Source of the DNA: a virus
Taxonomy: Duplodnaviria > Heunggongvirae > Uroviricota > Caudoviricetes
IMG/VR virus record: IMGVR_UViG_3300028888_000003
Length of the DNA: 64,000 nucleotides
Direction: 5' to 3' (one strand)
Position 1 is the stretch's first letter. Each line of letters opens with the position of its first letter. The translations under genes and the position numbers were made by a program. Under the pieces are notes generated by a model. That model saw only the letters and a list, made by a program, of their open reading frames with translations, had not been told where the DNA came from and ran no database searches. Below, piece by piece: positions 28,334-49,858 of the stretch.

Positions 28334-28897
28334 TCAAAGAAAGGTTTTACATTCTTCTACTTTTACTTTCATATCTTTGATTGCATCGTCAAGCAATACA
28401 GGGGTACAATTATGAGAATCCATACCTACGTGATATATAAAGGGCATTTCATTATAAAAATTGGTCTTTTGATGGGTATGTCCATACAGATTAATCAAAC
28501 AATTATGTAAAGAATTGCTATCAAAATTCGCAGTCATACTGGGATAATGAGAAAGATAAAAATGATATTTTTTATACTTGATAATTGTAGCATAATTTAC
28601 TTCAACTATATTATCAAGGTCTTCAACATACATTTGTTCTCGAGCGGCGCTGTCATGGTTACCAAGAATCACATGAATATAACCATTCAGTCGTGCGATA
28701 CAACTTTTACCATATTCTTTATCTCCAAGGGTTAAATCACCAAGCAGATAAACATCATCATCTTTATCTACAACTGAGTTCCAACGTTCAATTATTGCCT
28801 CATCGTGTTCTTCAATAGAATTAAAACCGCGAGGCTTATACAGAAATTCACGATCATGACCGAAATGTGTGTCGCTCGTTACGAAGATTCTCCCTGC
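28334..28897 (-). CDS. calcineurin-like metallophosphoesterase
   Basis: DTHFGH, GDLTLGD, GNHD motifs; start at MAGRIFV after AAAGGAGTAATAGT. Confidence 0.65.
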   Translation of the reverse strand, partial: AGRIFVTSDTHFGHDREFLYKPRGFNSIEEHDEAIIERWNSVVDKDDDVYLLGDLTLGDKEYGKSCIARLNGYIHVILGNHDSAAREQMYVEDLDNIVEVNYATIIKYKKYHFYLSHYPSMTANFDSNSLHNCLINLYGHTHQKTNFYNEMPFIYHVGMDSHNCTPVLLDDAIKDMKVKVEECKTFL

Positions 28898-28913
28898 CAT
28901 ACTATTACTCCTT

Positions 28914-29096
28914 TCAATAAGAAATTTTTCCTTGCTTAATTTTAGCAATAGTAATCATTGCTTGTTTTATTTCATTGGCTAATTCTGTATTATTTTCTTC
29001 AATTGCTTTTCTTTTAATTTTCCATAAAACCATATATGCTTCATTTATAACAGTACTATCATCAATATAAACTTCATTATACACTTCAGTTACCAT
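28914..29096 (-). CDS. hypothetical small protein
   Basis: 60 aa. Confidence 0.45.
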   Translation of the reverse strand: MVTEVYNEVYIDDSTVINEAYMVLWKIKRKAIEENNTELANEIKQAMITIAKIKQGKISY

Positions 29097-29128
29097 TTTA
29101 ATACTTCCTTTCTTCTTTTTCTAAATAT

Positions 29129-29157
29129 ATTATACTAAAATTTTTAGAAAAAATCAA
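29129..29157 (-). promoter_or_regulatory. class-B late promoter
   Basis: rc TTGATTTTTTCTAAAAATTTTAGTATAATATATTTAG. Confidence 0.6.
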
Positions 29158-29200
29158 GTTTAGACCACCACAGTATGTACTTCTGCGGCGGTCCGAAATT

Positions 29201-30322
29201 TTATTCCATGAGCTTTAATACTTTGTCTATTGAAATCTTCTTCAAATATTCAAATGCAGTTATTTCCGGATTTTTAAGAGCGGCGAAGCAATAGCCCCGT
29301 GCATCTCCTAACTCTTTCACATATTCTGCGATTGCTTTGCGGTCTTCAAGCTGATATACTCTGATATAATTTTCCATAGCTGCGCGCGCAACTTCAAAGG
29401 CTTGTTCAACGAATTTGAAATCGCGAATGGTTTTCTGAATTTCAGGCATATCACCAAAGAAACCAATCATATCATCTATATACCCGTCAAGAATTGCTTT
29501 TACTACTTTTTTCTGGGTTATTTTATCATTCCCACGAATACGGAATGCTTTAAGATATTCCGCACCTTTAACTTTGATACGATTAAAGTTCTTATCGCAT
29601 ACAACAAATCCTTCATTCAATTTAGAAAGTGAAGCTGCCGCGTCGAGTACGTCGTCGATTGATTTAAATTGATAAGTTCTTGGACGAGGAAAACCAAACT
29701 CTTCATATAACGGATTATAAGCTGTATCCAAATGAAGTTCTTTATCATCGTCTTTACGAACTCCAATCCAATACAAATAAGTTTGTTCATAAGGAACGAC
29801 GAGACGATTGTAAGGAGATACCAATTCAAACATATAGGTATAACCTTCATACATAAATTTAAAAAAGTCATTCATAGCTTTTTTATCTTTAAAACAAGAG
29901 CAAACCAAATCATAGAAGGTCATAGTACCATCATATCCTTCAACTTCTGCTTTTCTTGCATCAATAGTAGAGTTGGTAGATATGTGCCATTCGTCTAAAT
30001 CGTACCAAAATTTTATCAATGAACCGTCTATCTTTTCATAGATAACTGCCGAATCCCAATCTATCTCCGCCGCATTAGCTTCTTGAGCATTAAAAAATTT
30101 ATCGAACGGATGGCATACGCAGATATAACAATCTTTCTCTTTGTCAAATCTAAATATGCAGCCGCGCGCTTCCTGTACAAGGGGGTTCGACATATCAGAA
30201 TTAAGCATATCATACTTTAAGAGAAAGTACGGCTCATCATCTTTAACTATTAAATTGTAAGGTTCTTTGGTAAGAATTTCTCGCCAATCGTTATGTTGAT
30301 TTATAAAGTTTAAGAGTTTCAT
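29201..30322 (-). CDS. ATP-dependent RNA ligase-like nucleotidyltransferase
   Basis: motif I EKIDGSL (KxDG), 373 aa; adjacent phosphoesterase. Confidence 0.55.
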   Translation of the reverse strand: MKLLNFINQHNDWREILTKEPYNLIVKDDEPYFLLKYDMLNSDMSNPLVQEARGCIFRFDKEKDCYICVCHPFDKFFNAQEANAAEIDWDSAVIYEKIDGSLIKFWYDLDEWHISTNSTIDARKAEVEGYDGTMTFYDLVCSCFKDKKAMNDFFKFMYEGYTYMFELVSPYNRLVVPYEQTYLYWIGVRKDDDKELHLDTAYNPLYEEFGFPRPRTYQFKSIDDVLDAAASLSKLNEGFVVCDKNFNRIKVKGAEYLKAFRIRGNDKITQKKVVKAILDGYIDDMIGFFGDMPEIQKTIRDFKFVEQAFEVARAAMENYIRVYQLEDRKAIAEYVKELGDARGYCFAALKNPEITAFEYLKKISIDKVLKLME

Positions 30323-30689
30323 ACTTTCTCCTTTCGACTAATCTATTAGTAGTTAATTCCTAATTTTTGTGCTAATTCAAAAATATCATTTTGACAAATA
30401 TAATCATAATTTGAACTACCTAATGGATAAAAGTATCTTAAAAAATCATCAAATTGTCTAAACAAAATTTCCAATATGAATTTTTCTTTATCTGTTAATT
30501 CAGGCATATACTTTCCCCTTTCCATTTAAATCATCATTCCACCATAATAGGAAGCATATATAAAAGTTAACTCAATAACAAGGCCAAGCAGAATTCGTGC
30601 CGCTTTTTCATTTTCTACTATCCAAGATATCCAAACCAATGTAAATATTATTACCCAAAAAATAAAATGAATTGTACGAGCTTCATTCA

Positions 30690-31232
30690 TTAGTATTCTC
30701 CTTCCTTTTGAATAACTTCAATCTGACAACTCTCCATTACTTTAAGTGCAGCCTCATGAGCATCCGGAGTGGTGCCGGCGCAGCAGTAAGCAAGGCACTT
30801 AATTGGAATATTAGGACAAGCCGCGCGAAGTATAAGTGCGTTTGATACTACACATATATCTGTGCATAAACCAAAAATTACTATCTCATCGGGATTCCAT
30901 CTATCCAAATCCTCACGAAACCAATTATAACCAAAAGTCTTTTTGGGTTCAGGATAGTTATAAACACCCTTAAGAGCTTCGCAAATTGCAGGGTGCATAT
31001 TATAACCATTTGTACCTACAAGACAATGGGGTATCGGAAGTTTCTTTCCTTCTAATGTATCAAGGTAACCATTATCGTGCCAATCGTGTGTCGTTATAAA
31101 GGTAGCCTTTTCTTCTTTATAATGTTCAATCGCGGCGACTGCTTTCGGGACTATCAACTGCGCAGCCTCTGAGCCAAGACAACCATCTATAAAATCATTC
31201 TGCATATCAATTACTATTACAAGTTTACTCAT
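30690..31232 (-). CDS. isochorismatase-family hydrolase (nicotinamidase PncA-like)
   Basis: VIDMQNDF (Asp), Lys, GLCTDICV (Cys) catalytic triad pattern. Confidence 0.6.
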   Translation of the reverse strand: MSKLVIVIDMQNDFIDGCLGSEAAQLIVPKAVAAIEHYKEEKATFITTHDWHDNGYLDTLEGKKLPIPHCLVGTNGYNMHPAICEALKGVYNYPEPKKTFGYNWFREDLDRWNPDEIVIFGLCTDICVVSNALILRAACPNIPIKCLAYCCAGTTPDAHEAALKVMESCQIEVIQKEGEY

Positions 31233-31244
31233 TTTAATTCTCCT

Positions 31245-31442
31245 TTATATTCCCCATAAGTAATCATTAAGTTCATCAGCATACATATCAAATGCAGGAT
31301 TACCGACTCCACATTCTGGGTCATCTAAAAATGCTTCTATATCTTGATCTAAGCCAAAAGCACCAGTTAGAAAGGTTTCTGCTCTCCAATTTCTTTCAAA
31401 CTTTTCAAAATCTCTTTCATTATCAATTATTTCTATACTCAT
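31245..31442 (-). CDS. hypothetical acidic protein
   Basis: 65 aa. Confidence 0.45.
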   Translation of the reverse strand: MSIEIIDNERDFEKFERNWRAETFLTGAFGLDQDIEAFLDDPECGVGNPAFDMYADELNDYLWGI

Positions 31443-31474
31443 TTTAATTCTCCTTTTATTCTTTTTCTAATAAT

Positions 31475-31503
31475 ATTATACTATAAATTTATAAAAAAAT
31501 CAA
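31475..31503 (-). promoter_or_regulatory. class-B late promoter
   Basis: rc TTGATTTTTTTATAAATTTATAGTATAATATTATTAG. Confidence 0.6.
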
Positions 31504-31540
31504 ATTTAAAAATAGGTAGCCTTCACTACCTCTTTAATAC

Positions 31541-32434
31541 TTATTTATTTGTTTTAATTTCTCCAGCGGGAATCATAATAGCAGCATCTTCACCCGCGAC
31601 CACCTGCGGTAATTCACCATTCCACTTCTCAATATACTGCTCTCTCAAAATTTTATCAGTAAGAGATTTTTCAAGAAGTTCATTAGCTTTTGCTTCAGCT
31701 TCGGCAGATACAATTTTTGCCTTTGCATCAGCTTCAGCTTTGGCAATCTTAGCTTTATTCTCATAGTCGGCTTTTAATTGTTTCTGCTCTGCTACCATCT
31801 TATCTTCAACAGCTTTTTCAAAAGCATCAGAAAAATCAATATTAGTAAGTACAACTGTTGTTACATTAACAAAATATTCTTTACCAATAGCATCTTTAAT
31901 TGCACTTTCTACTTTAGGCGACATAGCTGCGCGGTCGGCAATTATATTCATAGCTTTATAGGAAGAAAGAATTGCTTTTGTTTTTTCGATTGCAACAGAC
32001 TCAATTCGATTTTCAAGAGCTTCAAGTGAACCATACTGATTGGCAATTGAGATTGCTTTATCGCTCATAATTTGATACTGAAGCGTCATCTGAACATCCA
32101 TTGTCTGCGCGTCGCTTGAATAAGCCGCAGTAGTAATATCTACATTCTGCACCTTTGCATCATATTTCTGGTACTGATTAATAACCCAAAAGTCAAAATA
32201 GGTGCCGGCAGGACGAGTGTTCTTTGCTTTACCAAGCTGTTTTACTACTGCAATTTCACCAGTATTTACTGTATGAAAACTCGGCGCAATCAAAAAACCT
32301 AAAAGTAAAATTAGTATCCCAATCACAACAAAATGAGCAAATTGTTTGTCGTCTTCATATTTGAGAAAAGAAAGCACAAACATACCAATTGCTATTGCTA
32401 CAAACATAATTCCTAAAATAATTCCGATAACCAT
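31541..32434 (-). CDS. SPFH/band-7 (prohibitin/flotillin-like) membrane protein
   Basis: N-terminal TM helix, SPFH core, C-terminal A/E/K coiled coil. Confidence 0.65.
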   Translation of the reverse strand: MVIGIILGIMFVAIAIGMFVLSFLKYEDDKQFAHFVVIGILILLLGFLIAPSFHTVNTGEIAVVKQLGKAKNTRPAGTYFDFWVINQYQKYDAKVQNVDITTAAYSSDAQTMDVQMTLQYQIMSDKAISIANQYGSLEALENRIESVAIEKTKAILSSYKAMNIIADRAAMSPKVESAIKDAIGKEYFVNVTTVVLTNIDFSDAFEKAVEDKMVAEQKQLKADYENKAKIAKAEADAKAKIVSAEAEAKANELLEKSLTDKILREQYIEKWNGELPQVVAGEDAAIMIPAGEIKTNK

Positions 32435-32539
32435 TTTAAATCTCCTTTTATTTAATTTTTAATCTATTTCCATTAAATATGATAATGGGTCAACCGCGCC
32501 ACAACGCATGGCGGCTGTCTAATATCTTCTATGCTCTGA

Positions 32540-32833
32540 CTAAAATCTTTCTTGTGCTTCTCGTTTTCTTTCTTCTTCATCTTCATTATATATTTCTGCT
32601 GATATAATATAGATTTTATCTATTGTATATTCGGTGAATCTATTATATAATTTAATTGCACCCTGTATGGATTTCATTTCTTTTGCACAAGTATAGAACA
32701 AATCTATATCATCAATTTCAATCCTAGGACCTTCTGTTTCTTGATAAAGTTTATATATAGCTTCATTTATATTAGAAGCCTCTATTACATAGTCTTGGCA
32801 AATTGATTTATTTAGTAGAATAAGATATTTCAT
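32540..32833 (-). CDS. hypothetical protein
   Basis: 97 aa. Confidence 0.5.
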   Translation of the reverse strand: MKYLILLNKSICQDYVIEASNINEAIYKLYQETEGPRIEIDDIDLFYTCAKEMKSIQGAIKLYNRFTEYTIDKIYIISAEIYNEDEEERKREAQERF

Positions 32834-32839
32834 TTTTAT

Positions 32840-33100
32840 TTACTCCCCAATTAAAATACAATTAACTGAATTAACTCGATATTTTGTTCCGTCTTTACTT
32901 ATTATTACTACTCCGTCATTATGTACGTTGGGCATCCAGTTTTCGATTTCAACTTCAGTCGTACTTCCGTCTGGAAGTCTAATGATTGCTTTATTATACT
33001 CATCATTACTAATATATTTTCTATTAGTAGATGAGGATGAACAACTCGTAAATGCTAATAGGGTAACTATAATAAGTATGATACTAATTACCTTTTTCAT
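32840..33100 (-). CDS. putative lipoprotein
   Basis: signal peptide + lipobox LAFTSC. Confidence 0.55.
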   Translation of the reverse strand: MKKVISIILIIVTLLAFTSCSSSSTNRKYISNDEYNKAIIRLPDGSTTEVEIENWMPNVHNDGVVIISKDGTKYRVNSVNCILIGE

Positions 33101-33102
33101 TT

Positions 33103-33315
33103 TTATTCCTCCTTTGAAGTCCTACATAATTCAATAAAGTCGTCATATGTAGCAAGTCGAATTTTTTCACAAATGCTATTATCAGCCAATTCATGAGTAT
33201 ATACTGGTCTTCCGAGTTTTTCTTCAACATATTCATAAAAATATTTTCGCTTATCACCAGTAAGCATGCATATACCGGTAAAGGCTTCAACAATTGCACA
33301 TTCTCTTACAGTCAT
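33103..33315 (-). CDS. hypothetical protein
   Basis: 70 aa. Confidence 0.45.
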   Translation of the reverse strand: MTVRECAIVEAFTGICMLTGDKRKYFYEYVEEKLGRPVYTHELADNSICEKIRLATYDDFIELCRTSKEE

Positions 33316-33497
33316 TCTTCTTGCTCCTTTACAACAACATAACCTTCATCTTTAATCCATATATCAAAATCTTCCGTACAAATAGGACACAAATCATAAT
33401 ATTTATTTGGATGATTAGGGGTATCAAGACCAACCACTGAGCGTTTATCATCCAATTCATAAAAACTGCCACATCTATCACATTTTCCTGCTATCAT
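33312..33497 (-). CDS. zinc-ribbon small protein
   Basis: CDRCG...CPICTEDF. Confidence 0.5.
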   Translation of the reverse strand: MIAGKCDRCGSFYELDDKRSVVGLDTPNHPNKYYDLCPICTEDFDIWIKDEGYVVVKEQEE

Positions 33498-34073
33498 TTA
33501 TTTTTCCTCCGAATTATTAAACATTAATAATTTAAACCATTTATCAACGAATTTTTTAATATCAGATTTTTCATAATCATTCCCGTTTTTAAAATCTTCA
33601 TTGAACGCATAGTGACCTATATCTTGCTTATACATCCAAGCAAGGTTATCTGATATGACTTTGAATTTATAATCACCTATTTCAAAAGTATCTCCGATTT
33701 TAAAATTAGAAGATTTAAGATTTGAGATTTGCAAAGCTGGGCGTACACAGTGACGATCAACAACGCTTTGAGCGCAATAGGAATTACAGCTAGGTGAGCG
33801 CACCCACCAGAAATCACTGTATTCTCTTTCACTTTCTGTTAAATATTTTTCTACTTCTTCAATCGAAAGAAGTGTTGCTCCTGTAATTTCAAGCTCTTCT
33901 TCAACCGTTGATTTGATTATTTTATTTACTTTCATTTTTCCTCTTCCTCTATATATTGATTCCCTTTTAGGACAATTATCACAATCACCAGGGCAATAGT
34001 CTCCGTCGCATTTCTTTGGCTCATAGGCCCATTTACTCACGCTCATTTGTATCTCTCCTATCTCCATCGGCAC
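33498..34073 (-). CDS. hypothetical Cys-rich protein
   Basis: 191 aa; CDGDYCPGDCDNCPKRE. Confidence 0.5.
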   Translation of the reverse strand: MPMEIGEIQMSVSKWAYEPKKCDGDYCPGDCDNCPKRESIYRGRGKMKVNKIIKSTVEEELEITGATLLSIEEVEKYLTESEREYSDFWWVRSPSCNSYCAQSVVDRHCVRPALQISNLKSSNFKIGDTFEIGDYKFKVISDNLAWMYKQDIGHYAFNEDFKNGNDYEKSDIKKFVDKWFKLLMFNNSEEK

Positions 34074-34338
34074 AAAAGTAATCAGCCTCGTGCTCTTCTA
34101 AATGAGTAACGGTTGATTTAAGGATACAAAGATATTCGTATGATGCAGGTACATCATAATCTTTCTTAATTGAATGCTTACAATCCTTACACCTGACTAC
34201 CTTAACATAGTCGCTATTGGTATCACTTGTAATTATTGTATTTACATCCTGTGCAGGACACCAAGTTATTCCACAATCTTCACCTGTATAATGGTCACAC
34301 CATACAACATTACATATCATTCTGTTTCCCTCTTTCAT
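34033..34338 (-). CDS. hypothetical Cys-rich protein
   Basis: 101 aa. Confidence 0.45.
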   Translation of the reverse strand: MKEGNRMICNVVWCDHYTGEDCGITWCPAQDVNTIITSDTNSDYVKVVRCKDCKHSIKKDYDVPASYEYLCILKSTVTHLEEHEADYFCADGDRRDTNERE

Positions 34339-34442
34339 CTTTTTTCTTTTTTATACGGTCAAATATTTCTCTACCAATTATTATTAATATAAAAGAAATA
34401 TTAGTAACACACATAATTTTAAGTAAAGTAAACAATATTAAC

Positions 34443-34805
34443 TTAACCATTAATCTTACCTCTCATATCTGCCCCACAATGTAAACAAAATCTTGCATAA
34501 GAATGTTGTTCATTCGGAATCCAAGATTGACATAAAGAGCAAGAGTATGTTCCATTATTATTTTTTACCCACTCTCCATGTATATTCTCTCGTATATCAG
34601 TAACAGGTTTAAGCCAAAGAGGCTTACCTTCATAATATAATCTTCGCTGTGTTTCAAGTTGTGATACAAGACTATCAATTAAAATTTTATTATACATATA
34701 ATCAACATATAATCCTGTTTCAATTTCACCAAAACAAATTTGATATTTCATTCTGTTTCTCCTCTTTTTCGCATAGGATTTCCGCAATGAGGACAGAAAT
34801 CCCAC
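34443..34805 (-). CDS. zinc-ribbon protein
   Basis: CSLCQS...CLHCGADM. Confidence 0.5.
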   Translation of the reverse strand: MGFLSSLRKSYAKKRRNRMKYQICFGEIETGLYVDYMYNKILIDSLVSQLETQRRLYYEGKPLWLKPVTDIRENIHGEWVKNNNGTYSCSLCQSWIPNEQHSYARFCLHCGADMRGKING

Positions 34806-35088
34806 GGAATATCATCTGGCGCGTCTTCTTCACAGATAGAACACATCAATGAGCCATAATCTTCACAAGAGAAAAATTCTCCAGTAGGACTTATCCAACC
34901 ATCGGCGGATAATTTATTATAATTCATTTTGTTTTTCCTCTTTCTTCATCAAACAGATTATCTAATCTTTCTTTTAATTCAGTGATAGAATGTTGTGCAC
35001 TATAAAAGTTGCCATTCATTATATCTTCTAATATTCTTAATAGTTCCAAATTATAATAATATTGTTGTACTGTCATTCTAATTCCTCC

Positions 35089-35529
35089 TTAGTCTTCAGA
35101 AGATAATGATTTAAGAATTTTCTCATAATCATCATTTATAACTGCTTTGAAATAATGCGTACAATATGTTGAGTCAAAAGTATCTGTTATATGCTCTAAA
35201 AATAAACTGCTAAATCTTTCTTCCCAATCTTTTGCACCACAATATACATAGTTGGAACCTTCATCTTCATATCCCATACCACAATCACCACACCTTGTAT
35301 GAATATAAATAACATCTTGTCCAGCATATTTATTGAACACTTCAAATTCTTCATTATAATATTCATCTTGTTCTACAGGTGATTCAATTTTCATAAATCT
35401 TGCGCCACGAAGTCTTGGTATTTCACCATAGTTTTCTGCTAAATATTTACCTATCATTTCATCTGTTGACTGTAAATAAGCATATAAATCCATATTATTT
35501 CTCCTTTCGTACTTCTGCGCGACCACCAT
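35089..35529 (-). CDS. hypothetical protein
   Basis: 146 aa; RBS AAAGGAGAAATAATATG; GGTCGCGCAGAAGTACG motif in its 5' UTR. Confidence 0.55.
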   Translation of the reverse strand: MVVAQKYERRNNMDLYAYLQSTDEMIGKYLAENYGEIPRLRGARFMKIESPVEQDEYYNEEFEVFNKYAGQDVIYIHTRCGDCGMGYEDEGSNYVYCGAKDWEERFSSLFLEHITDTFDSTYCTHYFKAVINDDYEKILKSLSSED

Positions 35530-35628
35530 CGGGGATGGTCATCAGCCATATTTTCCAGACCTGATGACCATCAGGCATCGCAGTCGCGCACTACAACATA
35601 TTAAACTTCTTCCTTAATCTCTAATATA

Positions 35629-35657
35629 ATTATACTATAAATTTATAAAAAAATCAA
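35629..35657 (-). promoter_or_regulatory. class-B late promoter
   Basis: rc TTGATTTTTTTATAAATTTATAGTATAATTATATTAG. Confidence 0.6.
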
Positions 35658-35691
35658 ATTTGAGAGGCATTTGTAAATACCTCTCAAACTC

Positions 35692-36459
35692 TTATTCTCT
35701 ATAACCACAAAAATCAACAATTTTAATTACTCCATTAGGAAGCATACCGTAATTGGCTTGATGTAAGTCATTAATACAATGTGCATAAATGAAATCTTCA
35801 ACATCACTATCGTGAATCAGACAAACAAGCACATCATCCCACTCAAGCCAAGAATCTTCATAGTCAGCGAGTCTACACTCATAGTCATCATCATCTTCAT
35901 CGTCATTCTGAGTAATACCGACTTCTTCAATTAAGTATTCTCTAATTTTGCTACTTGAATATGAATCATATTCGTCGCCGCAGTCAAGCCTTTCCTGAAT
36001 ATAGAAGTCAATTCCATCAATTTTACAAAGAAAATATGTTGCGGCAAAGGCCCAATCAACACCTTCATTAACTGCTTCAGCAAAGAAATTAGCTTCTCTC
36101 TTGCAGTAATTATAAGAGTTACTTTTGAAGTCGACTTTAATAACCCAATTATCAAGCTCTCCATCGTCTCTCATAAAAACACCACGAGTTGAGCCAGAAG
36201 CTACGGTAGTATCATAAGGAAGAGATTTAAGATTACTATAAAAAGCACGACGCTTTTCACTACGCTTGTCAAAATATTCCTGAGCGTCATCAGAAGCGGT
36301 AAGATGATAGGTGTTATCTATATAATTATAGACGCCACAATCTACGAGGTCGTGCGCGAACTCGATTGCGATTTCTTTTTCATGGTTAGTATATTTTATC
36401 ACTATTCTCTTCCTTTCTTTTTTAGAAATGAAAATGAGGAAGAAATCCCGCGGGGTCAA
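35692..36459 (-). CDS. hypothetical protein
   Basis: 255 aa. Confidence 0.55.
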   Translation of the reverse strand: MTPRDFFLIFISKKERKRIVIKYTNHEKEIAIEFAHDLVDCGVYNYIDNTYHLTASDDAQEYFDKRSEKRRAFYSNLKSLPYDTTVASGSTRGVFMRDDGELDNWVIKVDFKSNSYNYCKREANFFAEAVNEGVDWAFAATYFLCKIDGIDFYIQERLDCGDEYDSYSSSKIREYLIEEVGITQNDDEDDDDYECRLADYEDSWLEWDDVLVCLIHDSDVEDFIYAHCINDLHQANYGMLPNGVIKIVDFCGYRE

Positions 36460-36540: not shown

Positions 36541-37030
36541 TTAAATTGTCTTTCTTAATAATGCTCTTAAAGAGTTTGCAAAATTAAAAATAGTTTTATA
36601 ATCAAAAGCTATTTTAACCCATGTTTTTTCTGCCATTAAGTTTTTTACTTCATTCCAAATTGGCTCAGTCGGATACGTAGTATTCGTTTTAATAGAAGAT
36701 TTCTCTTTTCTTTTAGTTTCCCATACTTCTCTTCCACCTAACCAAGGCTCTACTTCTATATTAACTAAGCCACTACCACGAGTAGCTGAAAAAATTGTAT
36801 TCGATGCCTCTAATAATAAATCTGATAATAGCATATAATATCCATTTATATTATATATATGTATAGTGCCATCTGTACCATTAGCACGAAACATCTGTTC
36901 AATATCATCGAACATCCAAGCTGCCGCAATCTAAGCCAACTATTCTTTAGCAGCCTCTAATTGTCCTGTTTCTACTCCATTGGCTATATTAAAAATAATT
37001 GCATTTAAATTACCAGAACTAATACCCATT
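36541..37030 (-). CDS. hypothetical protein with 2 in-frame TAG
   Basis: MGISSGNLNAIIFNIANGVETGQLEAAKE-TAG-LA-TAG-IAAAWMFDDIEQ... Confidence 0.4.
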
Positions 37031-37461
37031 TTTTCAATATTTTTCTATAATCTCTAATCTATTAAACGTAAATTACCGCTACCTATTTGAATATTATTTA
37101 AGCTACCATAGTCTTTTGCACTAATAGCTAATAACCAACCATTTGGACCAACTGCAGTCTATAACTAGTCTGCTTCAATTTTCATCTTCTTCATTAGATT
37201 ATCTATTGCTTCTATATCCATTTCATCGGATATAGTAATTGTTGCTCTTGCGCGATCTATTACTTCTACGTCTGCTTTTCCTTCTTTTATACCAACTGCT
37301 GCAACGTCTTGCTTTTTTATGTGTAGTTTTGTATCCATAAATTCTCCAGCTATATTATATTCCAATGGAATACCCAATAAAACATTATTGATTATACTAT
37401 CAATTTGCTATCTTACGGTTTTTCCACTTCCATGATTATTAATAGTAGTTTGTAAAAGCTA

Positions 37462-38121
37462 CTAATTTATTGGAGCAAAAAGTCCCGTATTTTCATCATA
37501 CCAACCTTTTGGAGCATTCTTTTGAAAGGAACTTTTTAAACGATTAAAAATTTCTTTGTATAGATTCCATTTTTTATTAACAGTGGTATTATTAAAAACT
37601 TTTTCTTCTAAGAAAGCATTAATATAATCGTCTATTGTTTTTGTTATTCCAAGATTAGACCAGCCGCCGCCTCTTTTATTTTCAACAAAATCTTTTTTTA
37701 GTTGCTCTGCTAAATAATCGCCAAATTTACGACCATAAACTCCACTACTTTTTAAGGCTCCTCGATCTTTATCATAATTTTTAACAAGTTCTTCTAATGC
37801 TTGTTTTCTTTTAATTAGCAAATTTATAATAGCTGATAGTTTACCGCTACCATCTTGATTTAATATTGTTATAATTTGCGATTGTAAGTCTGAGTCTTCT
37901 GGTAAGAGAGCTAATTTATTTATTATATAATTAGTTTCTTTAGTGCGTTCTGCATTAGCTAATTTAGAAAGTACTGAACTTAATTCTGCTAATTCTTTGT
38001 TCAGTTGATTTTCATTTCCCATACGAGCACTTACTTTGTTTGCATAAGGGTTGGTTGTATCAGAAAAGATTACGTATTTATCAGAAACCCACTTGGCAGT
38101 ATTAAAATATTTAGTACCCAT
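37462..38121 (-). CDS. hypothetical protein
   Basis: 219 aa. Confidence 0.5.
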   Translation of the reverse strand: MGTKYFNTAKWVSDKYVIFSDTTNPYANKVSARMGNENQLNKELAELSSVLSKLANAERTKETNYIINKLALLPEDSDLQSQIITILNQDGSGKLSAIINLLIKRKQALEELVKNYDKDRGALKSSGVYGRKFGDYLAEQLKKDFVENKRGGGWSNLGITKTIDDYINAFLEEKVFNNTTVNKKWNLYKEIFNRLKSSFQKNAPKGWYDENTGLFAPIN

Positions 38122-38196
38122 AAGTATACCTCCAAAAATCTATTTCTCCAATTAAAAGTAAAAAAGAGCAGACAACTGTCTACTCTTTCAACTATT

Positions 38197-38995: not shown

Positions 38996-39222
38996 TATAT
39001 AGCACCTCCGTTATATTCTGCTGTAACTGTTATGAACGGATAAATCTTAATCGGATAAAACACACCATCTGTTCCGCCTCCAGTTGCCGCAGTACCTGTA
39101 ACAACCGTGCCATCATTCAAATGCCCAACCTTCCCACTCGCAATATCGTTCGCAGAAACCACAGTATCAGTACTCAAATCAATCAAAGTAGCACTATCAA
39201 AAGTAACTTTATTAACCGCCAT
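38995..39222 (-). CDS. fibre-tip module protein A (copy 1); paralog of 44807..45046
   Basis: 75 aa; V.FDS.TLIDL..DTV.S.NDIASGKVGHLNDG.VVTGTA.TGGGTDG. Confidence 0.55.
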   Translation of the reverse strand: MAVNKVTFDSATLIDLSTDTVVSANDIASGKVGHLNDGTVVTGTAATGGGTDGVFYPIKIYPFITVTAEYNGGAI

Positions 39223-39244
39223 TTCCCGGTACCTCCGCTACTAA

Positions 39245-41026
39245 TACGTTATAGGTTGTGGTTACACCACTGTCGGTTATTACGAGGGGTTTTAGTACGA
39301 CATTATATTCAACGCCGTTAATTGTTGCCTTTCCTTTTGATTCTTTCGTGGTATCAGGCATACTTACGATTTCTTCTATTGCGAAGCATTGGCGACTATT
39401 TAAATTTATACATCTCGCTTTAACAAGAGCACCTTTAGGAATTGTTTGTGCTAATGGATTGTATAACCAACCAGTACCATTTATACCATTCTATTCAAAT
39501 ACTACAATTGAGTTATTTGTTCTGTCAAAAGTTGTAATACCGTTATCTGTAGATATATCAACATTTTTACTCGATCCTAATTCAGCAGGAGTATAAAACT
39601 ATACATAGTGATAATTATATTGTAAATCATTAACCTAAGAACTATCTATAATATTGTTGCTATTAAGGTCATATACATAGACAGTTTCATTATTATAGGT
39701 AGTTGTATTTACAAAACTTAGCTGAATAGGATGGTCTTTATAATAATCTACTAAGTGTCCAATATTAGTATGATTATAGCTATATGCTATCGGAGTTCTA
39801 TTCTGGAGAATTACATACTCATTATTTCCAATAGAATAGTCGTAGTCAAAAATCCTATAAATGGCATTGTTATCTGGATAGCTAAATGTTGATGTTGCTG
39901 CGCCAGTGTGGTTAATTAATACTACTCTATTTTTAATAGGAACACAAACATTTCCATTAGGTTTATTGGTCCGTTCATAGGACCAGCTATCTTTCCAACC
40001 AGAACTCGTATTTGTTAATTCAAAACTTGGCTTCCAACTATTTAAATATCTAGAACCATTTGGAGTTAACTCTATAACGATATCATTGTCATCGTATTCT
40101 GGTGCGTCAATATCATCATAATCATTTACCTTTTCCCAACAGAAATCTTCTTCTCTAATTAGTTGGACTGTTATATAGCGTTTAGTAGAATTTAATCGAT
40201 CTGTTACTGTAAAAGGTTCTGATAACACTTTAAAATAATATGTATTACCTGATTCTAAATAATTGTAAGTAGCCACACTAAAGGCAGACTCTTCAATAGT
40301 ATTATACATTCTTTTTGATAAATTTTTAATAAAATCTATTCCCAAATGCTGGCTATTCAATTCTTCTTCAGTAAATTGAGTTAAAAGACAAGTTGTAGTA
40401 GTACCATTCACTTTACAGTCTATTGTAGGACTATAGCTAAGATGAATATTATCAAGAATAGATATTACGCCATCTTCATGACAAGATATATAATCCATAC
40501 GTTTATTGGTTCCATTGCCAATGGGAATGGTAATATATTTATTTACTAAAGCAGATCCAGTATAACTACTAATATAAGAATTTGCAATTAATCCAACAGT
40601 ATTGGCTAAAGTTTGTAAACTACGACCAGTTTTTAGGCTATCGTTATATTTATATAATGTACCTTTCCCTAAATAGTTTTGCTTAAAATATAAATCACCA
40701 TCTTTAGGAACTTCGCGAATAAATTCACTATCCGAAAATACTCTTGGTGTATATTTAGCTTCTGCTTTGAGTGCTAAATTTTTATCAATTTCTGCTTTAT
40801 TTTGTAATAATTCTACTTTTTTACTTAATTCTAATCTTTTATAATTTTCATCTGTTGATAAAGAAATAGCAGAAATTTGAAAAGCACTATCTAATCTATG
40901 TATCTGACATGAAGTATCAATTGGTAAATTAATACAAATATGAACAGAAAAAGTTGTTTCAGTAGATAAATCAATTTCAGCAACGAATGATTCTTCAACG
41001 TTTTCATCATTATAATTTATACTCAT
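39245..41026 (-). CDS. large structural protein; TAG at 39635 read through (3' end approximate)
   Basis: 463-aa ORF-track piece 39635-41026 ends in TAG and the frame continues. Confidence 0.4.
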
Positions 41027-41039
41027 TCTGTGCCTTATA

Positions 41040-41737
41040 AGCCCTATAGTCTAGTTTTCTTTTTTGAGACTGCGGTATGCATTAAAAGATTCAAAATTCT
41101 TATCTATATGATATGAAATCAATTTTTGTGAAAACCAATCAGTTATCTCTTCAAAAGAAGGTATAAAAACAGCGCGATCAATTTCTTCAGTAATAATTTC
41201 ATTGCTCTCAATCGTCTAAACTAATATAGTTTTATTTTCAAGAGTGCTAAAATATGAGCTGGTCCAATTACTAATAGTCTAATCTAATTCGCCATTTTTA
41301 TAACCAGTAGAAGCAAAACCGTGTCCATTCATAGTAAATTCAAGCTAATCCAATGAAAGTAAAGTAATGCTATTTTTATTATCTACTATCATAAAATGAG
41401 TATCTTGTCCGTTAAAATCTGCTGTTAAACAAGTACCTAAAGGTAATAATTTTAAATAAACGCCGTCTGAAGAATAGGGTGAATCATTATGAGAATTAAC
41501 GACTGCTAATTTTACAGAAGAATCAATCGTAGGGTTTTTATACGTATTGTAAAAATCAATTTCATTTGGTACATCATTAATTGTAATTTTTGTATTGAGT
41601 ACGTTACGTATAGTATTTAATTTGCTATTTACAGATGAAGATAACTGCTCCATCTTATTGTCGCTTTCTGTTTTTGTATATATATTTCTTTTTAATGCAT
41701 CTATAATCGTTTTAAAATTATCTTTTAAGGTTGCCAT
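41040..41737 (-). CDS. hypothetical structural protein (TAG at 41345 read through; end approximate)
   Basis: ORF-track 41345-41737 ends in TAG. Confidence 0.35.
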
Positions 41738-45643: not shown

Positions 45644-46036
45644 TTAATCCCATAAACTATTCCAATTATTCTTAAACCAATCAAATACAGCTTCTCTCGC
45701 AATACTAGCCTCTTCATCAGCATCTTCCCAAGCGGCGCGACCAATATCTTTATCCCAATCTATACAATTATCAGGATTAAACTTCTCAATTAAATCAGCA
45801 ATATTGTTCAACTGTACTTGCCAATTTTCAAATGTATCAAAACCACCGGGATACCCAGAGGCATTTTTAGCAAAGTCTCTTAACCCTTTACTTAAAACTT
45901 TTTCTAAATAAGTATCAAAATTCCAAAGGTCGCAATCTGCATAGCCACGTTTGCCTCTCTGAATAAACCATTTAATTTTACGAGGAATATATTTAATTTC
46001 ATAAAAGAATTCTCTAATTTTATACCATTTAATCAT
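45644..46036 (-). CDS. hypothetical protein
   Basis: 130 aa. Confidence 0.5.
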   Translation of the reverse strand: MIKWYKIREFFYEIKYIPRKIKWFIQRGKRGYADCDLWNFDTYLEKVLSKGLRDFAKNASGYPGGFDTFENWQVQLNNIADLIEKFNPDNCIDWDKDIGRAAWEDADEEASIAREAVFDWFKNNWNSLWD

Positions 46037-46066
46037 AGCAATTTCTCCTTTTTATTTTCTAATAAA

Positions 46067-46095
46067 ATTATACTAAAAATTTCTAAAAATTTCAA
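46067..46095 (-). promoter_or_regulatory. class-B late promoter preceded by terminator + GGTCGCGCAGAAGTACG motif
   Basis: rc TTGAAATTTTTAGAAATTTTTAGTATAAT. Confidence 0.55.
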
Positions 46096-46167
46096 GTTTT
46101 ACGTACTTCTGCGCGACCGCCAAAAAAATCGCTCATGGCAGACACCATGAGCGACTCAAATTATTTC

Positions 46168-46475
46168 TGTTTTCTTTTTGTTGCGATATAACCCGCACCA
46201 AGCGCGCCACTAAGTGCCGCAAAGGCTCCGATTGCGCCAACAGAACCGGTATCAGGTACGGTATTATAATAATTAGTATTACCTCCCTAATTAGTATCTG
46301 TTGCGGTTGCATCAGCCACAGTAGCAGTTGCATCAGTCTTAGTTGCATCAGTTACAGTTGCATCAGTAATTGTTGCTGCCGCTGTATCTGTTGGAGTAGC
46401 ACCAATCGCATAGACCGTGTAACTAAAACTAAGTATAAAAGCAACTACTAATAATATTTTTAAAAAGGTCTTCAT
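46168..46475 (-). CDS. secreted/membrane-anchored Thr/Ala/Asp-rich protein (1 in-frame TAG)
   Basis: signal peptide, TDAT repeats, TAG at 46287, C-terminal hydrophobic segment + KRKQK. Confidence 0.4.
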
Positions 46476-46487
46476 ACTGTCACCTCC

Positions 46488-47321
46488 TTAATCTAGTAAG
46501 TCGGCATATGCGCTTGCCCGAGACCTCTCCGATCTTGGCAAATACACATATGCAAATAATTCCTTTCCACTCAATCTATCAACCATTTTCTCCATACCGC
46601 TATCTTTTTCAAAAATGGTCTTATCTGTTTGTCTACGGTCGCCCGCAAACCACAGTTGTGAGTCTTCACCAATTCTACCAATTAATAACTGGCACTGATG
46701 TGTCGTTAAATTCTCTGCTTCATCGCAAAATATAATCGACCTTCTAAAATCGCGTCCTCTCAAATAACCAAGCGGCGCAATTTCAAGTTCGTTTTTCTCA
46801 ATTAAAGTCCTAACTGCATCCATACTACCCAAATGATCCCCGATATTACCAGCCCAAGGTAACATTTTTTCAGTAGCAGTTCCTGGAAGACTACCAAGTG
46901 GAGTCGTATCTTTTAACTCAATATTATTTCTAACAAAAATTATCTTATCAATTCTATTCTTTTCAAGTGCTTCAAGCGCGTGCGCAATCATCAATAAGCT
47001 TTTACCACTACCATAGTTGCCCGCAAGTAACTTAATATCAACCGATTGATTTTGCAGCATATCAAAAGCAAATTCTTGCTCTAAATTTTTACTACGTAAT
47101 ACACCTAAGTGATATGTCTCAATTGGGCGCGACCGCAAGTGTCTAAATTCTCCGTCTTCCCAACATCTTTTATCAACAATATTTCCTTCAATATCTTCAA
47201 CTACAAAGTACTCGTTCTCGCGCGGTTCACGCACGATTGGCAGTTTCCCTTCTTGATAAAAGGTACTTAGTTCTTGGTCAGTACATTTAACAATACTATA
47301 ACCTTTGTACTCTTCCAACAC
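46488..47321 (-). CDS. PhoH-like ATPase
   Basis: Walker A GNYGSGKS; IFCDEAENLT; 277 aa. Confidence 0.65.
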   Translation of the reverse strand: MLEEYKGYSIVKCTDQELSTFYQEGKLPIVREPRENEYFVVEDIEGNIVDKRCWEDGEFRHLRSRPIETYHLGVLRSKNLEQEFAFDMLQNQSVDIKLLAGNYGSGKSLLMIAHALEALEKNRIDKIIFVRNNIELKDTTPLGSLPGTATEKMLPWAGNIGDHLGSMDAVRTLIEKNELEIAPLGYLRGRDFRRSIIFCDEAENLTTHQCQLLIGRIGEDSQLWFAGDRRQTDKTIFEKDSGMEKMVDRLSGKELFAYVYLPRSERSRASAYADLLD

Positions 47322-47332
47322 ACACCAACTCC

Positions 47333-47953
47333 TTAAAGCAAGACATCAATATCAGTAATAATCTCATCAACAACTCCGTTCTCCAGAGCTTCTGAAATTT
47401 TTACATACCAATCTCCTTGATTTAATTTTTCTTCAATTATTTCAGGTGAATAGTTAGTATTCTTCTTATAAAAACTAACTAATTCTTGAATTTGCTGTTC
47501 ATAGTCCTTCATAAAACTTTGAACTTGCTGGAAGTCACCGCCTACTCCCGATACGCTTCCCTTATGAAATACAAAAGTAGTATTCGGTAACGCGAATTTT
47601 TTGCTTCCGGCTATGAAAATCATTGACGCCGCCGAGGCGCAAGTCCCAAACGCATATGTATAAATAGGTGTCTTAGAAATATTAAATATTTCAATTAAAG
47701 TTTTCGCAACATCAAGCGAACCGCCGGGCGAGTCAATAAAAATTTTAATCGGTTTTCTTTCTTCTTTGTCTCTGTCTTCTCTATTCCAAGCTATAATATA
47801 CTGAACTAATTCAAGTGTATCATCAGTAATCTCAGAATCAATCCAATATGTGCGGTTTTCTAAATCCTTATAAAAGTTTACAAGGACTGGATCGGCCAAT
47901 TGAAGATTAGCTTCGCTGCTATCTCCAAGTAAAAATAAAAGGTCATTATCCAT
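47333..47953 (-). CDS. ClpP-like serine protease
   Basis: GxSxxS... ASAASMIF (Ser), FVFHKG (His) arrangement, 206 aa. Confidence 0.55.
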   Translation of the reverse strand: MDNDLLFLLGDSSEANLQLADPVLVNFYKDLENRTYWIDSEITDDTLELVQYIIAWNREDRDKEERKPIKIFIDSPGGSLDVAKTLIEIFNISKTPIYTYAFGTCASAASMIFIAGSKKFALPNTTFVFHKGSVSGVGGDFQQVQSFMKDYEQQIQELVSFYKKNTNYSPEIIEEKLNQGDWYVKISEALENGVVDEIITDIDVLL

Positions 47954-48067
47954 TTATTTGTCCTCCAATCTATTTTAGGAATTACTTCCTTATATAAGTA
48001 AAAAAATTACTTTTACTCTCTAATTAAAAAAGGCAGACTTTAAAGCCGTCTGCTGGGGCTTTTTGAC

Positions 48068-48400
48068 TTAAAAGATTCTATGCCAATCAAAAAGTTCATC
48101 GACAAGCTTTTTAATGTCGTAATCCTTTAGGTCTTCCGAAGTAGAATACGTAGCATGGAAGTAACCATAGTCTTTAATAAAATCATTTCTCAATGATTTA
48201 TAAGTCTTCTCCGCTTCAATCCAAGCTGTGTAAGCATCTTGGACTTCTTTCGCGCGGGCGGTCTTCTCTTCTTTCAACTTGAGTTGCTTATTTTTTGCAT
48301 CTTCAAGTTTCTGCAGATAAACCTTCTCTGCAGTGACACACTCTTCTTCTGTGTCGAAAGTCTTTTTGAGTTCTTCGGAATAGTACTTCATTTTCAACAT
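48068..48400 (-). CDS. hypothetical coiled-coil protein
   Basis: 110 aa. Confidence 0.5.
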   Translation of the reverse strand: MLKMKYYSEELKKTFDTEEECVTAEKVYLQKLEDAKNKQLKLKEEKTARAKEVQDAYTAWIEAEKTYKSLRNDFIKDYGYFHATYSTSEDLKDYDIKKLVDELFDWHRIF

Positions 48401-48610
48401 CTCCTATTATGTGAAAAATTTTTTTAATTAGCATTCCTTTCTGCTAATCTGGTACGGGAGACAAGACTCAAACTTGCACTATTACGGGTCTAAACCGTAT
48501 ATCTCTGTCAATTGGATTACTCCCGCATAAAAAAGTATGGCAGCCCCTGTGAGTGCTGCCCTCACTCCTGCGGTTTTAGAGACCGCCGTCCTAGCTGTTA
48601 GACGAAGGGG

Positions 48611-48810
48611 CATTATGTTTAATCCTCTATAAAAGCAAATTCTTGCGAGTCTTTTAACTGCTTATACTTATCTAAAGGAACTAATAACAAATTTCCCGTA
48701 TCAGCCATTACTACTTTAAAATTGTCTTCCCAATTCTACTCGTAGTTAATGTAAATACAAGTATGTGAATCGGCATATTTGCCGAGTTGTTGGATTAAAT
48801 CTATAACCTT
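48611..48810 (-). CDS. small protein with one in-frame TAG
   Basis: MKVIDLIQQLGKYADSHTCIYINYE-TAG-NWEDNF... Confidence 0.35.
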
Positions 48811-49110
48811 CATTCTGATACCCCAAAAATAAAAATAAAGCGGGATTTGTGTATAAAGTTTGGGAGGTGAAACTTTTACGGTGTCGTACCCGCACGAGGC
48901 TAGCCCTCACGACCTTTCACTATGGTAGAAAGTACCCTATATACGAGTGGGACTTCCTCTTGCTCAAGGAGTTATTCCACACTAATTACGATTTTAATTT
49001 TCTTAACAAGAAGGAGAAAACCGCATAAAACTCCAAAAGAACAAAATTGAGCAGATAATGTTCTAAAAGATAGTAAATAGAATAATTTCCTTTTCCTATT
49101 TACTATAATA

Positions 49111-49139
49111 ATTATACCAAAAATTTTGAAAAAAGTCAA
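49111..49139 (-). promoter_or_regulatory. class-B late promoter (TTGACT -35)
   Basis: rc TTGACTTTTTTCAAAATTTTTGGTATAATTATTATAG. Confidence 0.55.
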
Positions 49140-49858
49140 ATTCTAACTATTCCATCAATGCTAAGCGAAGTAATTTTTTTACCACCAGTTTCAATTTCGC
49201 AAGATTTATGAACGTGTCCACAAAACCACTCTTTAAAAGTAGCAATTTCTAAAATCTCATCTAATCTTTTCTCGCTATCTGCATAAATTGGATTGGGGTA
49301 GAGATTAGATTTTGCAATAAAGGTTGCGGGCGGGCAGTGAGTTAATATATAATCAACTTTGAAGTCGCGCACCTCTAAGTTTTTCTTTGCATTTTCAATT
49401 TCAGCATCACTTATAGTCTCTTCAGCCCACCAAATTGCCTCGCCATAATCTGCTTCATACTGCATACGCCATTCTTTATCGTGAGAATCAGCGCCACCAA
49501 TACAAAGAAAAGATTTTTCTTCTAACTGAACAATCTCGCCAGGCTGGATAACATAGATGCAGTCGCGCAGCTTCCACGTTTTAAAATCCCAGTCATTGCA
49601 AGTCTCAAGGTGATAATAACGCGGCCAGCAGTCATGATTACCAAGTATTGTAAAAAGGACTTTATCATTCTGTTTTAAAACCTCGTTTATATAATCAAGA
49701 GTACTTTCTTCAAATTTATCAGTTTTATTAGAAAACCATAAACCAAAATCTCCCAACTGAATACAGTATTTCTCTTGACTAAATTTAAAGAAATCAGATG
49801 GGTGCGCCCAATTTAATATCATATCAGTCTCAGCATGGATATCCGATAAAATCAGCAT
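49136..49858 (-). CDS. calcineurin-like metallophosphoesterase (second copy, distinct)
   Basis: LILSDIHAE, GDFG, GNHD motifs. Confidence 0.6.
   Translation of the reverse strand: MLILSDIHAETDMILNWAHPSDFFKFSQEKYCIQLGDFGLWFSNKTDKFEESTLDYINEVLKQNDKVLFTILGNHDCWPRYYHLETCNDWDFKTWKLRDCIYVIQPGEIVQLEEKSFLCIGGADSHDKEWRMQYEADYGEAIWWAEETISDAEIENAKKNLEVRDFKVDYILTHCPPATFIAKSNLYPNPIYADSEKRLDEILEIATFKEWFCGHVHKSCEIETGGKKITSLSIDGIVRI

Follow-up and report, generated by a model that had tools for sequence, protein, structure and literature searches.

Repair of broken RNA is the classic answer of phages to host defences that cut tRNAs, and the question raised by IMG/VR record IMGVR_UViG_3300028888_000003, a stretch of 64,000 nucleotides from a virus of the Caudoviricetes (hereafter the window), is whether it encodes such a repair pathway and, if so, with which enzymes. 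A preliminary description of the sequence had grouped an RNA ligase-like nucleotidyltransferase, a P-loop kinase and two distinct calcineurin-type phosphoesterases into an RNA-repair set adjoining a tRNA array. All four open reading frames (ORFs) were found on the minus strand and belong to the superfamilies stated there according to Pfam and PHROG matches (Table 1). Family membership, intact catalytic residues and gene linkage retain three of them in the set, namely the ligase (RNA ligase 1 family, Rnl1), the kinase (polynucleotide kinase, Pnk) and one phosphoesterase (metallophosphoesterase 1, MPE1), whereas the second phosphoesterase (MPE2) is left out, and from these sequence comparisons we consider it probable that the phage encodes a three-protein pathway of RNA end healing and sealing comprising MPE1, Pnk and Rnl1.

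The ligase carries the EKIDGS motif of the preliminary description at residues 96–101. It matched Pfam family PF09511 (RNA_lig_T4_1) with 71.6 bits (cutoff 28.3) and phrog_562 at 4e-45, and its sole match in the PDB was T4 RNA ligase 1 (2C5U; E 8e-15, phmmer). Motifs I (EKIDGS, K97), III (FELVSP, E166), IV (EGFVV) and V (KVKG, K250/K252) could be aligned with those of T4 Rnl1, with K97, E166, E237-G238 and K250/K252 corresponding to T4 K99, E159, EG and K240/K242, and K97, D99, G100, E166, E237, G238, K250 and K252 were invariant among 43 homologues sharing 35–89% identity. The AlphaFold model of the ligase (predicted local distance difference test score, pLDDT, 91.2) again had T4 Rnl1 2C5U as its best PDB fold match, covering the full length (394 columns, template modelling (TM) score 0.68 in both directions) at approximately 19% identity over the structural alignment, and its entirely helical residues 254–372 match the helical C-terminal domain of Rnl1. 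Fungal Trl1 ligase domains ranked next in the fold search, with Rnl2-type and DNA ligases much lower; a DNA ligase identity is ruled out by the Pfam match, the PDB sequence match and the fold ranking. As the score against the NCBIfam equivalog TIGR02308 (80.3 bits) is far below the cutoff of 242, the ligase is a member of the family and not a close T4 orthologue. The earlier wording "RNA ligase-like" can thus be narrowed, on sequence and predicted fold, to a predicted RNA ligase of the Rnl1 family, of which it is a distant member.

The kinase gene starts at a TTG codon preceded by an AAAGGAG ribosome-binding site, and its product scored 89.5 bits against AAA_33. The family phrog_505 ("polynucleotide kinase") matched at 1e-26, over profile positions 5–146 of 295 only. 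Its best solved relatives are all RNA or polynucleotide kinases: the archaeal seryl-tRNA(Sec) kinase PSTK (2.6e-12), the kinase domain of Clostridium thermocellum Pnkp (5.5e-10), T4 Pnkp (5.6e-8, a match whose alignment was not displayed) and Capnocytophaga Pnkp1 (3.7e-7). Alignment with C. thermocellum Pnkp placed the P-loop (GSGKS), the S-T-D32-E-I-R35 segment (the S-x-D-x-x-R motif that holds the catalytic aspartate), D72-ATN and the arginines of RNQNR (RNxNR). The P-loop kinase is accordingly closest to polynucleotide and tRNA kinases and has kept their catalytic residues, although the label "Pnkp-type" given to it earlier does not fit, as the 147-residue protein is without the C-terminal HAD (DxDxT) 3'-phosphatase half that defines T4 Pnkp. 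A fusion partner hidden behind a TAG read-through was ruled out, since the upstream in-frame ORF ends in TAA, and no HD domain was found in the window when it was searched with the HD halves of three Pnk-HD fusions. Among cultured phages, the closest relatives (44–47% identical) form the N-terminal half of a 324-residue protein of Tsamsa-like Bacillus phages, encoded directly after an Rnl1-type "tRNA ligase" gene; the C-terminal half of this protein is an HDIG domain that most resembles the HD domain in CCA-adding enzymes. The gene is therefore best described as encoding a predicted stand-alone polynucleotide 5'-kinase with no phosphatase domain.

The phosphoesterase assignment of MPE1, earlier placed at 28334–28897, was upheld (Metallophos_2, 33.2 bits, above the Pfam cutoff; phrog_547 "phosphoesterase", 1e-48) and only its start was revised, the ATG at 28900 behind an AAAGGAG sequence making the gene 3 nucleotides longer. 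The metal ligands D10, H12, D55, N81-H82, H118, H141 and H143 were invariant in 54 homologues. In a fold search with the MPE1 model (pLDDT 94.8), the nearest structures were Aquifex AQ665 (1XM7, TM 0.71) followed by E. coli YfcE and MJ0936, all of which are compact phosphodiesterases, while neither sequence nor fold resembled the lambda-phosphatase-type module of bacterial Pnkp. A substrate for MPE1 is suggested by the gene neighbourhoods and not by the fold.

These neighbourhoods were compared in 80 IMG/VR loci with MPE1 homologues (L013–L092; 45–58% identity, 43 clusters at 70% identity) and in 80 IMG/VR loci with Rnl1-clade ligases (L093 onward), fetched as 20-kb stretches and scanned with profiles built in this analysis; the counts come from related phages and are phylogenetically non-independent. 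The ligase loci were returned by alignment queries, a search of IMG/VR with the single ligase sequence having found no relatives. A Pnk-type kinase is encoded directly upstream of MPE1 on the same strand in 58 of the 80 MPE1 loci and within 3 kb in 14 more (72/80 in total), with only two loci having it elsewhere in the stretch and six having none. On the ligase side, 45 of the 80 Rnl1-clade loci have a Pnk-type kinase within 3 kb. MPE1 directly follows Rnl1 in the relatives L008 and L009 (MPE1 71%, ligase 80% identical), an AAA_33 kinase abuts MPE1 in contigs L010 and L011 (MPE1 approximately 59% identical), and Pnk, MPE1 and Rnl1 stand in a row in L085, L101, L104 and L206, the last in the order Pnk-MPE1-Rnl1. 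In phiPMW, one of the phages with the closest annotated ligase homologues, the order is Rnl1, a small ORF and a T4-type Pnkp, which thereby occupies the position of MPE1. Aeromonas phage 2L372X has the order phosphoesterase (MPE), Rnl1 and small P-loop ATPase; this 133-residue ATPase gave no BLASTP alignment with the Pnk of the window and matched the bacterial Pnkp kinase model weakly (7e-4), and it was excluded from the kinase profile.

The kinases of the two sets of loci differ in architecture. Those adjoining MPE1 are stand-alone proteins (median 169 residues; at least 250 residues in 1/75), whereas most of those adjoining Rnl1-clade ligases (L093–L171) are Pnk-HD fusions of approximately 300 residues with the kinase first and the HD domain second (e.g. 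L098:12400-13332 and L106:9007-9918). Where a ligase-linked kinase was not accompanied by an MPE1 hit, it had at least 282 residues in 32 of 37 cases, and the sequences inspected were Pnk-HD fusions. One locus, L106, combines an MPE1-like gene, Pnk-HD, Rnl1 and an MPE2 homologue within 5 kb. Such an alternation between a fused phosphohydrolase and a kinase plus MPE1 is expected if MPE1 supplies the healing of 3' ends, and the complementary distribution of stand-alone Pnk with MPE1 and of Pnk-HD fusions supports this role. From its gene linkage, MPE1 is likely a 2',3'-cyclic phosphate or 3'-phosphate healing enzyme.

Table 1. Positions of the predicted genes and RNA features within the 64,000-nucleotide window.
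Feature	Position	Strand	Basis or remark
Predicted Rnl1-family ATP-dependent RNA (tRNA) ligase, 373 aa	29201..30322	-	PF09511, 2C5U match, phrog_562, structural model
MPE1, predicted compact metallophosphoesterase, 188 aa	28334..28900	-	Metallophos_2, phrog_547
60-aa ORF between ligase and MPE1	28914..29096	-	existing gene annotation; no family match
Pnk, predicted stand-alone polynucleotide 5'-OH kinase, 147 aa	45185..45628	-	AAA_33, phrog_505
MPE2, predicted metallophosphoesterase, 240 aa	49136..49858	-	PF00149, phrog_1649
tRNA array: Gln, Trp, Gly, Asn, Phe, Glu, Met, two split tRNAs and two HDV-like ribozyme candidates	20184..23841	-	ARAGORN, Rfam
Isolated tRNA-Leu (UAG anticodon)	48450..48526	-	ARAGORN, Rfam; between a 110-aa ORF (48068-48400) and MPE2
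PhoH-like ATPase	46488..47321	-	PF02562, 140 bits; 0.9 kb upstream of Pnk
Isochorismatase/nicotinamidase-like gene	30690-31232	-	two small ORFs upstream of the ligase
SPFH/Band_7 gene	31541-32434		recurrent neighbour type in MPE1 loci
TAG-recoded genes (examples)	58342-63810, 55077-58292, 39212-41737, 36541-38151, 24785-26874	-	ORFs with TAG read as sense

In the pathway that we propose, MPE1 would act first, as a binuclear-metal phosphoesterase that opens and removes a 2',3'-cyclic phosphate or 3'-phosphate to leave a 3'-OH; the stand-alone Pnk would then move the gamma-phosphate of a nucleoside triphosphate to the 5'-OH, giving a 5'-phosphate, and Rnl1 would seal the 3'-OH and 5'-phosphate via a lysyl-AMP (K97) and an RNA-adenylate. 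The likely substrates would be tRNAs that host ribonucleases have cut in the anticodon loop, damage of the kind that T4 Pnkp and Rnl1 counter in the case of PrrC, and the phage's own tRNA genes would offer a parallel route to keep translation going. The order of these steps is our inference, as are the substrate of MPE1 and host anticodon nucleases as the biological target; the last two follow the example of T4 Pnkp/Rnl1 and PrrC and the finding that a healing module of the metallophosphoesterase type can work with T4 Rnl1. In bacterial Pnkp, the metallophosphoesterase module heals ends with a 2',3'-cyclic phosphate (PMC3675462), and in vivo a kinase-phosphatase of this kind repairs tRNA together with T4 Rnl1 (PMC1920235).

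Compared with the T4 system, the phage ligase agrees with Rnl1 (gp63) in family, fold and all catalytic motifs, the P-loop Pnk is homologous to the N-terminal domain of T4 Pnkp, and the logic of healing both ends before sealing would be shared; the T4 Pnkp and Rnl1 genes are also unlinked. The phage set differs from T4 in that the small kinase has no HAD domain, a separate metallophosphoesterase replacing the phosphatase, and in the distance of the ligase from T4 Rnl1 seen in both identity and equivalog score. The Pnkp/Hen1 system of C. thermocellum likewise has a P-loop 5'-kinase related to the phage Pnk, and its Mn2+-dependent metallophosphoesterase heals 2',3'-cyclic phosphates before ATP-dependent sealing (PMC3675462, PMC1920235). 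Bacterial Pnkp, however, unites three activities in one polypeptide, has a phosphoesterase of the lambda-phosphatase type and a ligase domain that needs Hen1, whereas the phage has three separate genes, a YfcE/AQ665-like phosphoesterase and an Rnl1-type ligase; the ORFs of the window that were scanned or already annotated, few of them at positions 1–17500, yielded no Hen1-like or methyltransferase family. A third arrangement, in which Pnk-HD lies next to Rnl1, is found in Tsamsa-like Bacillus phages and in many uncultured ones and includes, in the Tsamsa-like proteins, the kinase halves closest to the phage Pnk; these cassettes heal 3' ends by the fused HD phosphohydrolase, whereas the window has no HD domain and has MPE1. 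The HD-Pnk of Runella is a further system of this kind.

The combination of a kinase, a phosphoesterase and a tRNA ligase is itself already known from comparative surveys. A kinase, a calcineurin-like phosphoesterase and a T4-like tRNA ligase have been predicted to repair cyclic-phosphate RNA in phages, with calcineurin-like or HD domains taking the place of HAD phosphatases in jumbo-phage RNA repair, and Iyer et al. (2021/2022) described the combination as occasional, in jumbo and medium phages and often with sirtuin, cREC or MazG partners (PMC7824862, PMC9503650). Unlike those neighbourhoods, the present genome, that of a TAG-recoded phage, has a stand-alone Pnk and MPE1 at separate sites. 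The present analysis adds that uncultured phages very commonly carry the Pnk-MPE1 pair, which alternates with Pnk-HD and mostly travels with a PhoH-like ATPase: a PhoH homologue was found within 10 kb of MPE1 in 48 of the 80 MPE1 loci (72 of the 80 having the Pnk-MPE1 pair) and also, for example, in L010, where it is a PIN-PhoH, and in L011. To our knowledge, the only characterised healing enzymes are those of T4 (HAD-type) and of bacterial Pnkp (lambda-phosphatase-type). Across the approximately 160 loci, a YfcE/AQ665-like phosphoesterase with a stand-alone kinase appears to be a common third healing solution in uncultured phages, which, if confirmed, would give a function to the large phage "phosphoesterase" family phrog_547 and provide small, separable end-healing enzymes as possible RNA tools. 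The interest of the system rests mainly on how widespread this pair is and on its possible connection, in a recoded phage, with tRNAs that ribozymes process.

Several observations weigh against the proposed pathway. We know of no enzyme of the MPE1 clade that has been studied biochemically, the protein differs in type from the lambda-phosphatase-like module of bacterial Pnkp, and its nearest structures (AQ665, YfcE and MJ0936) are generic phosphodiesterases with unknown or non-RNA substrates. Rnl1 lies within 10 kb of MPE1 in only one of the 80 MPE1 loci, so the Pnk-MPE1 pair may often work without an Rnl1 ligase, and phrog_547 also occurs in phages with no ligase nearby, such as Staphylococcus phage GH15. 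No host anticodon nuclease is known for this phage, and the non-independence of the related phages applies to every linkage count. Within the window, Pnk lies 15 kb from the ligase-MPE1 pair, and the pair itself is interrupted: a GC-rich hairpin and T-run directly after the ligase stop codon (29100–29200, minus strand) are terminator-like in our reading, the scanner having called no terminator, and are followed by a promoter-like TTGATT-17-TATAAT ahead of the 60-residue ORF and MPE1. The ligase and MPE1 may thus be separate transcription units in this phage, though they abut in L008, which does not have the small ORF. That ORF was also considered as the counterpart of the small ORF of phiPMW at the equivalent position and rejected, the two being dissimilar.

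The gene set stands near the tRNA array as first described, the main array ending 4.5 kb from MPE1 and 5.4 kb from the ligase, and yet it is not one operon, as its four members spread over 21.5 kb with approximately 40 unrelated genes interspersed. This dispersal over 21 kb favours the view that the four genes are functionally unrelated, with MPE1, MPE2 or both acting on DNA ends, nucleotides or the cyclic nucleotides of immune signalling, the kinase having another substrate and the ligase homologue serving chiefly to attach tail fibres, as T4 gp63 does in its second activity. The PHROG label of the ligase family ("RNA ligase and tail fiber protein attachment catalyst") includes that activity, large tail-fibre-like repeat genes (our own reading; no family match) lie between the kinase and the ligase, phrog_547 has members in phages without ligases, and MPE2 homologues occur in DNA recombination/replication or rII neighbourhoods. 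We nevertheless regard this view as decidedly improbable, given that MPE1 is linked tightly and recurrently with Pnk and Rnl1 across diverse loci, that stand-alone Pnk with MPE1 and Pnk-HD are distributed in a complementary manner, and that the ligase has kept all its catalytic residues, for which there would be no need in a purely structural role.

MPE2 is, as first described, distinct from MPE1, the two sharing superfamily motifs only. It scored 46.5 bits against PF00149 (above the Pfam cutoff) and matched phrog_1649 at 1e-31, its metal motifs (DIH, GDFG, GNHD, THCP and GHVH) are intact, and no PDB or NCBIfam match was found by sequence. Its homologues adjoin rIIA/rIIB in Streptomyces phages, follow ERF and a PD-(D/E)XK nuclease ahead of primase and polymerase in L174, and lie in an M23-to-ClpP-PhoH neighbourhood in L172, as in the window. 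An MPE2 homologue was found within 10 kb of a Pnk-MPE1 pair in 20 of 80 loci, 3–8 kb upstream of it, and directly next to Rnl1 solely in L106, where the order is Pnk-HD, Rnl1, MPE2. This adjacency, the recurrence upstream of the pair and the intact active-site motifs would suit a fourth pathway component that, for example, removes the 2'- or 3'-phosphate after the cyclic phosphate has been opened. Such a part for MPE2 seems unlikely to us, since most of its neighbourhoods are unrelated to RNA repair, the loose linkage may reflect conserved synteny of an early-gene region, and sequence searches gave no similarity to any characterised RNA end-healing enzyme. With mixed neighbourhoods and one case of direct adjacency to Rnl1, the membership of MPE2 in the repair set as first described was not borne out; an RNA-repair role is unsupported and the enzyme is left outside the pathway.

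The tRNA genes bear on what the three enzymes might act upon. The preliminary description counted at least eight, and eight were indeed found by both ARAGORN and Rfam, seven at 21170–22629 and one at 48450–48526, in addition to two interrupted genes at 20240–21120 and 22668–23841. The latter, a tRNA-Leu(UAA) on the minus strand, has a 1087-nucleotide intron after U34, the site that the cyanobacterial tRNA-Leu intron also occupies, with a full-length but sub-threshold group I match at 22741–23145 (41 bits against 50, E 1e-8) and a TAG-containing ORF for an HNH-type endonuclease inside it. The tRNA at 20240–21120 (minus strand) is split in or beside the anticodon loop by an 803-nucleotide insert, nearly all of which is an ORF with its own ribosome-binding site encoding a 251-residue PD-(D/E)XK endonuclease (PF11645, 1e-25); no group I intron was found in the insert. 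ARAGORN calls this tRNA Ser(GGA), but the variable loop is short and the identity uncertain. An insert that is almost all ORF and has no group I signal, unlike the nearby tRNA-Leu(UAA) intron, together with the placement of Rnl1 and the Trl1 ligase domain in one family, raises the idea that the trio acts like fungal Trl1 and joins the two tRNA halves. We consider this highly improbable: neither a splicing endonuclease nor a bulge-helix-bulge motif was identified, the PF11645 family consists of DNA homing endonucleases, the split gene could be a dead tRNA, and ARAGORN in its intron mode readily makes false joins.

The split tRNA and tRNA-Glu are the only tRNAs without an encoded CCA, and each is directly followed by a candidate ribozyme of the hepatitis delta virus (HDV)-like theta type, at 20184–20240 and at approximately 21940–21996 (both minus strand). 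The first scored 31.3 bits against RF02682 (E 2e-4), below the gathering score of 44. P1 (7 bp), P2 (9 bp) and P3 (3 bp) could be drawn by hand in both, with P1 varying in sequence from copy to copy and from locus to locus yet keeping its complementarity. An exact theta core beside tRNA arrays was found in 38 stretches from 37 IMG/VR contigs, five of these contigs also being among the two lists of 80 loci. After cleavage of the HDV type, the upstream RNA ends in a 2',3'-cyclic phosphate. Theta-type ribozymes have been described in TAG-recoded gut phages in a paper that does not mention cyclic phosphates at all (PMC10879173). As a separate observation, a shared motif, GAGGT...GGTAATTCCTCC, lies just 3' of tRNA-Phe (21787–21857, minus strand) and tRNA-Trp (21380–21448, minus strand); it matched no Rfam family up to E 1 and could be another processing element.

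The position of the ribozyme candidates suggests that the enzymes might serve tRNA maturation and not damage repair. MPE1 would clear the ribozyme-left cyclic phosphate that blocks CCA addition, with the ligase optional; the HD half of Pnk-HD would do the same in relatives, and the task of Pnk would be to phosphorylate the 5'-OH of the downstream RNA that is set free. Since theta ribozymes would release CCA-less tRNAs with a cyclic phosphate to be cleared before CCA addition and charging, Pnk-MPE1 (or Pnk-HD) could be primarily a tRNA 3'-end maturation device in TAG-recoded, tRNA-rich phages, and in a bolder version Rnl1 would also join the halves of the endonuclease-interrupted tRNA at 20240–21120. 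The candidates do follow the only two CCA-less tRNAs of the window, the phage is TAG-recoded like those of the theta-ribozyme description (PMC10879173), the Pnk-MPE1 pair mostly has no Rnl1 nearby, the HD half of Tsamsa-type Pnk-HD is most similar to that of CCA-adding enzymes, and 7 of the 38 viral stretches with the exact theta core have Rnl1, Pnk, MPE1 or MPE2 within a few kb. A strict theta motif was, however, found within 10 kb in only 5 of 159 MPE1 or ligase loci, and homologous Rnl1/Pnk cassettes occur in phages without known theta ribozymes (T4, phiPMW and Tsamsa). Cleaning up 3' ends needs neither a kinase nor a ligase, host enzymes might remove the phosphate, and the association may reflect only the shared ancestry of large, tRNA-rich gut phages. 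A primary function in maturation seems unlikely to us, both for the genes of the window and for recoded phages at large; if true, it would fill a step missing in the published theta-ribozyme model of code switching. A position near tRNA genes is also seen at other loci: of 80 MPE1 loci, 15 have at least three tRNAs within 10 kb, as do 22 of 79 ligase loci.

The recoding itself was apparent from the gene calls of the existing annotation, which join ORFs that translation table 11 breaks, every internal stop being a TAG. Reading TAG as sense raised the coding density from 0.79 to 0.88 and brought out ORFs of 1822, 1071, 841, 536, 455 and 437 residues with up to 20 in-frame TAGs; by our own mapping of the table-11 ORF boundaries, the M23 peptidase domain spans one of them. 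The recoded genes look structural or lytic (tail-fibre-like SHAEG repeats, by our own reading and with no family match, and the M23 peptidase), and there are no in-frame TAGs in any of the four genes of the originally described set. There is no suppressor tRNA(CUA) within the window. The phage thus reads TAG (amber) as a sense codon, and the coexistence of recoding with ribozyme-processed and intron-bearing tRNAs would make it a good system for studying how recoded phages render their tRNAs functional.

The window belongs to a metagenome contig of 139,084 bp (ENA ERZ27257205:k141_6637418), whose locus L001 matches positions 19201–40322 at 100% identity. It has a G+C content of approximately 33%, and the minus strand holds nearly all genes from approximately 17 kb onward. 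Megablast of positions 28334–36000 against 50,697 phage records gave zero matches, and hence no close cultured relative. Among the remaining neighbours listed in Table 1, the SPFH/Band_7 type recurs in 13 of the 80 MPE1 loci. Genes of nicotinamide adenine dinucleotide (NAD+) salvage (NAMPT and PRPP synthetase-like) lie a few kb from MPE1, Pnk or Rnl1 homologues in L010, phiPMW and Staphylococcus phage GH15, with NAD synthase and NADAR near the repair homologues of L010 only, which suggests a counter-defence gene neighbourhood. Finally, the product of an ORF at 51984–52400 (minus strand) gave a weak, sub-threshold MazG/PRA-PH-like match (E 0.005, 17.6 bits with the cutoff at 21.3); some tRNA-ligase neighbourhoods of phages are reported to include MazG-type enzymes as partners (PMC9503650).

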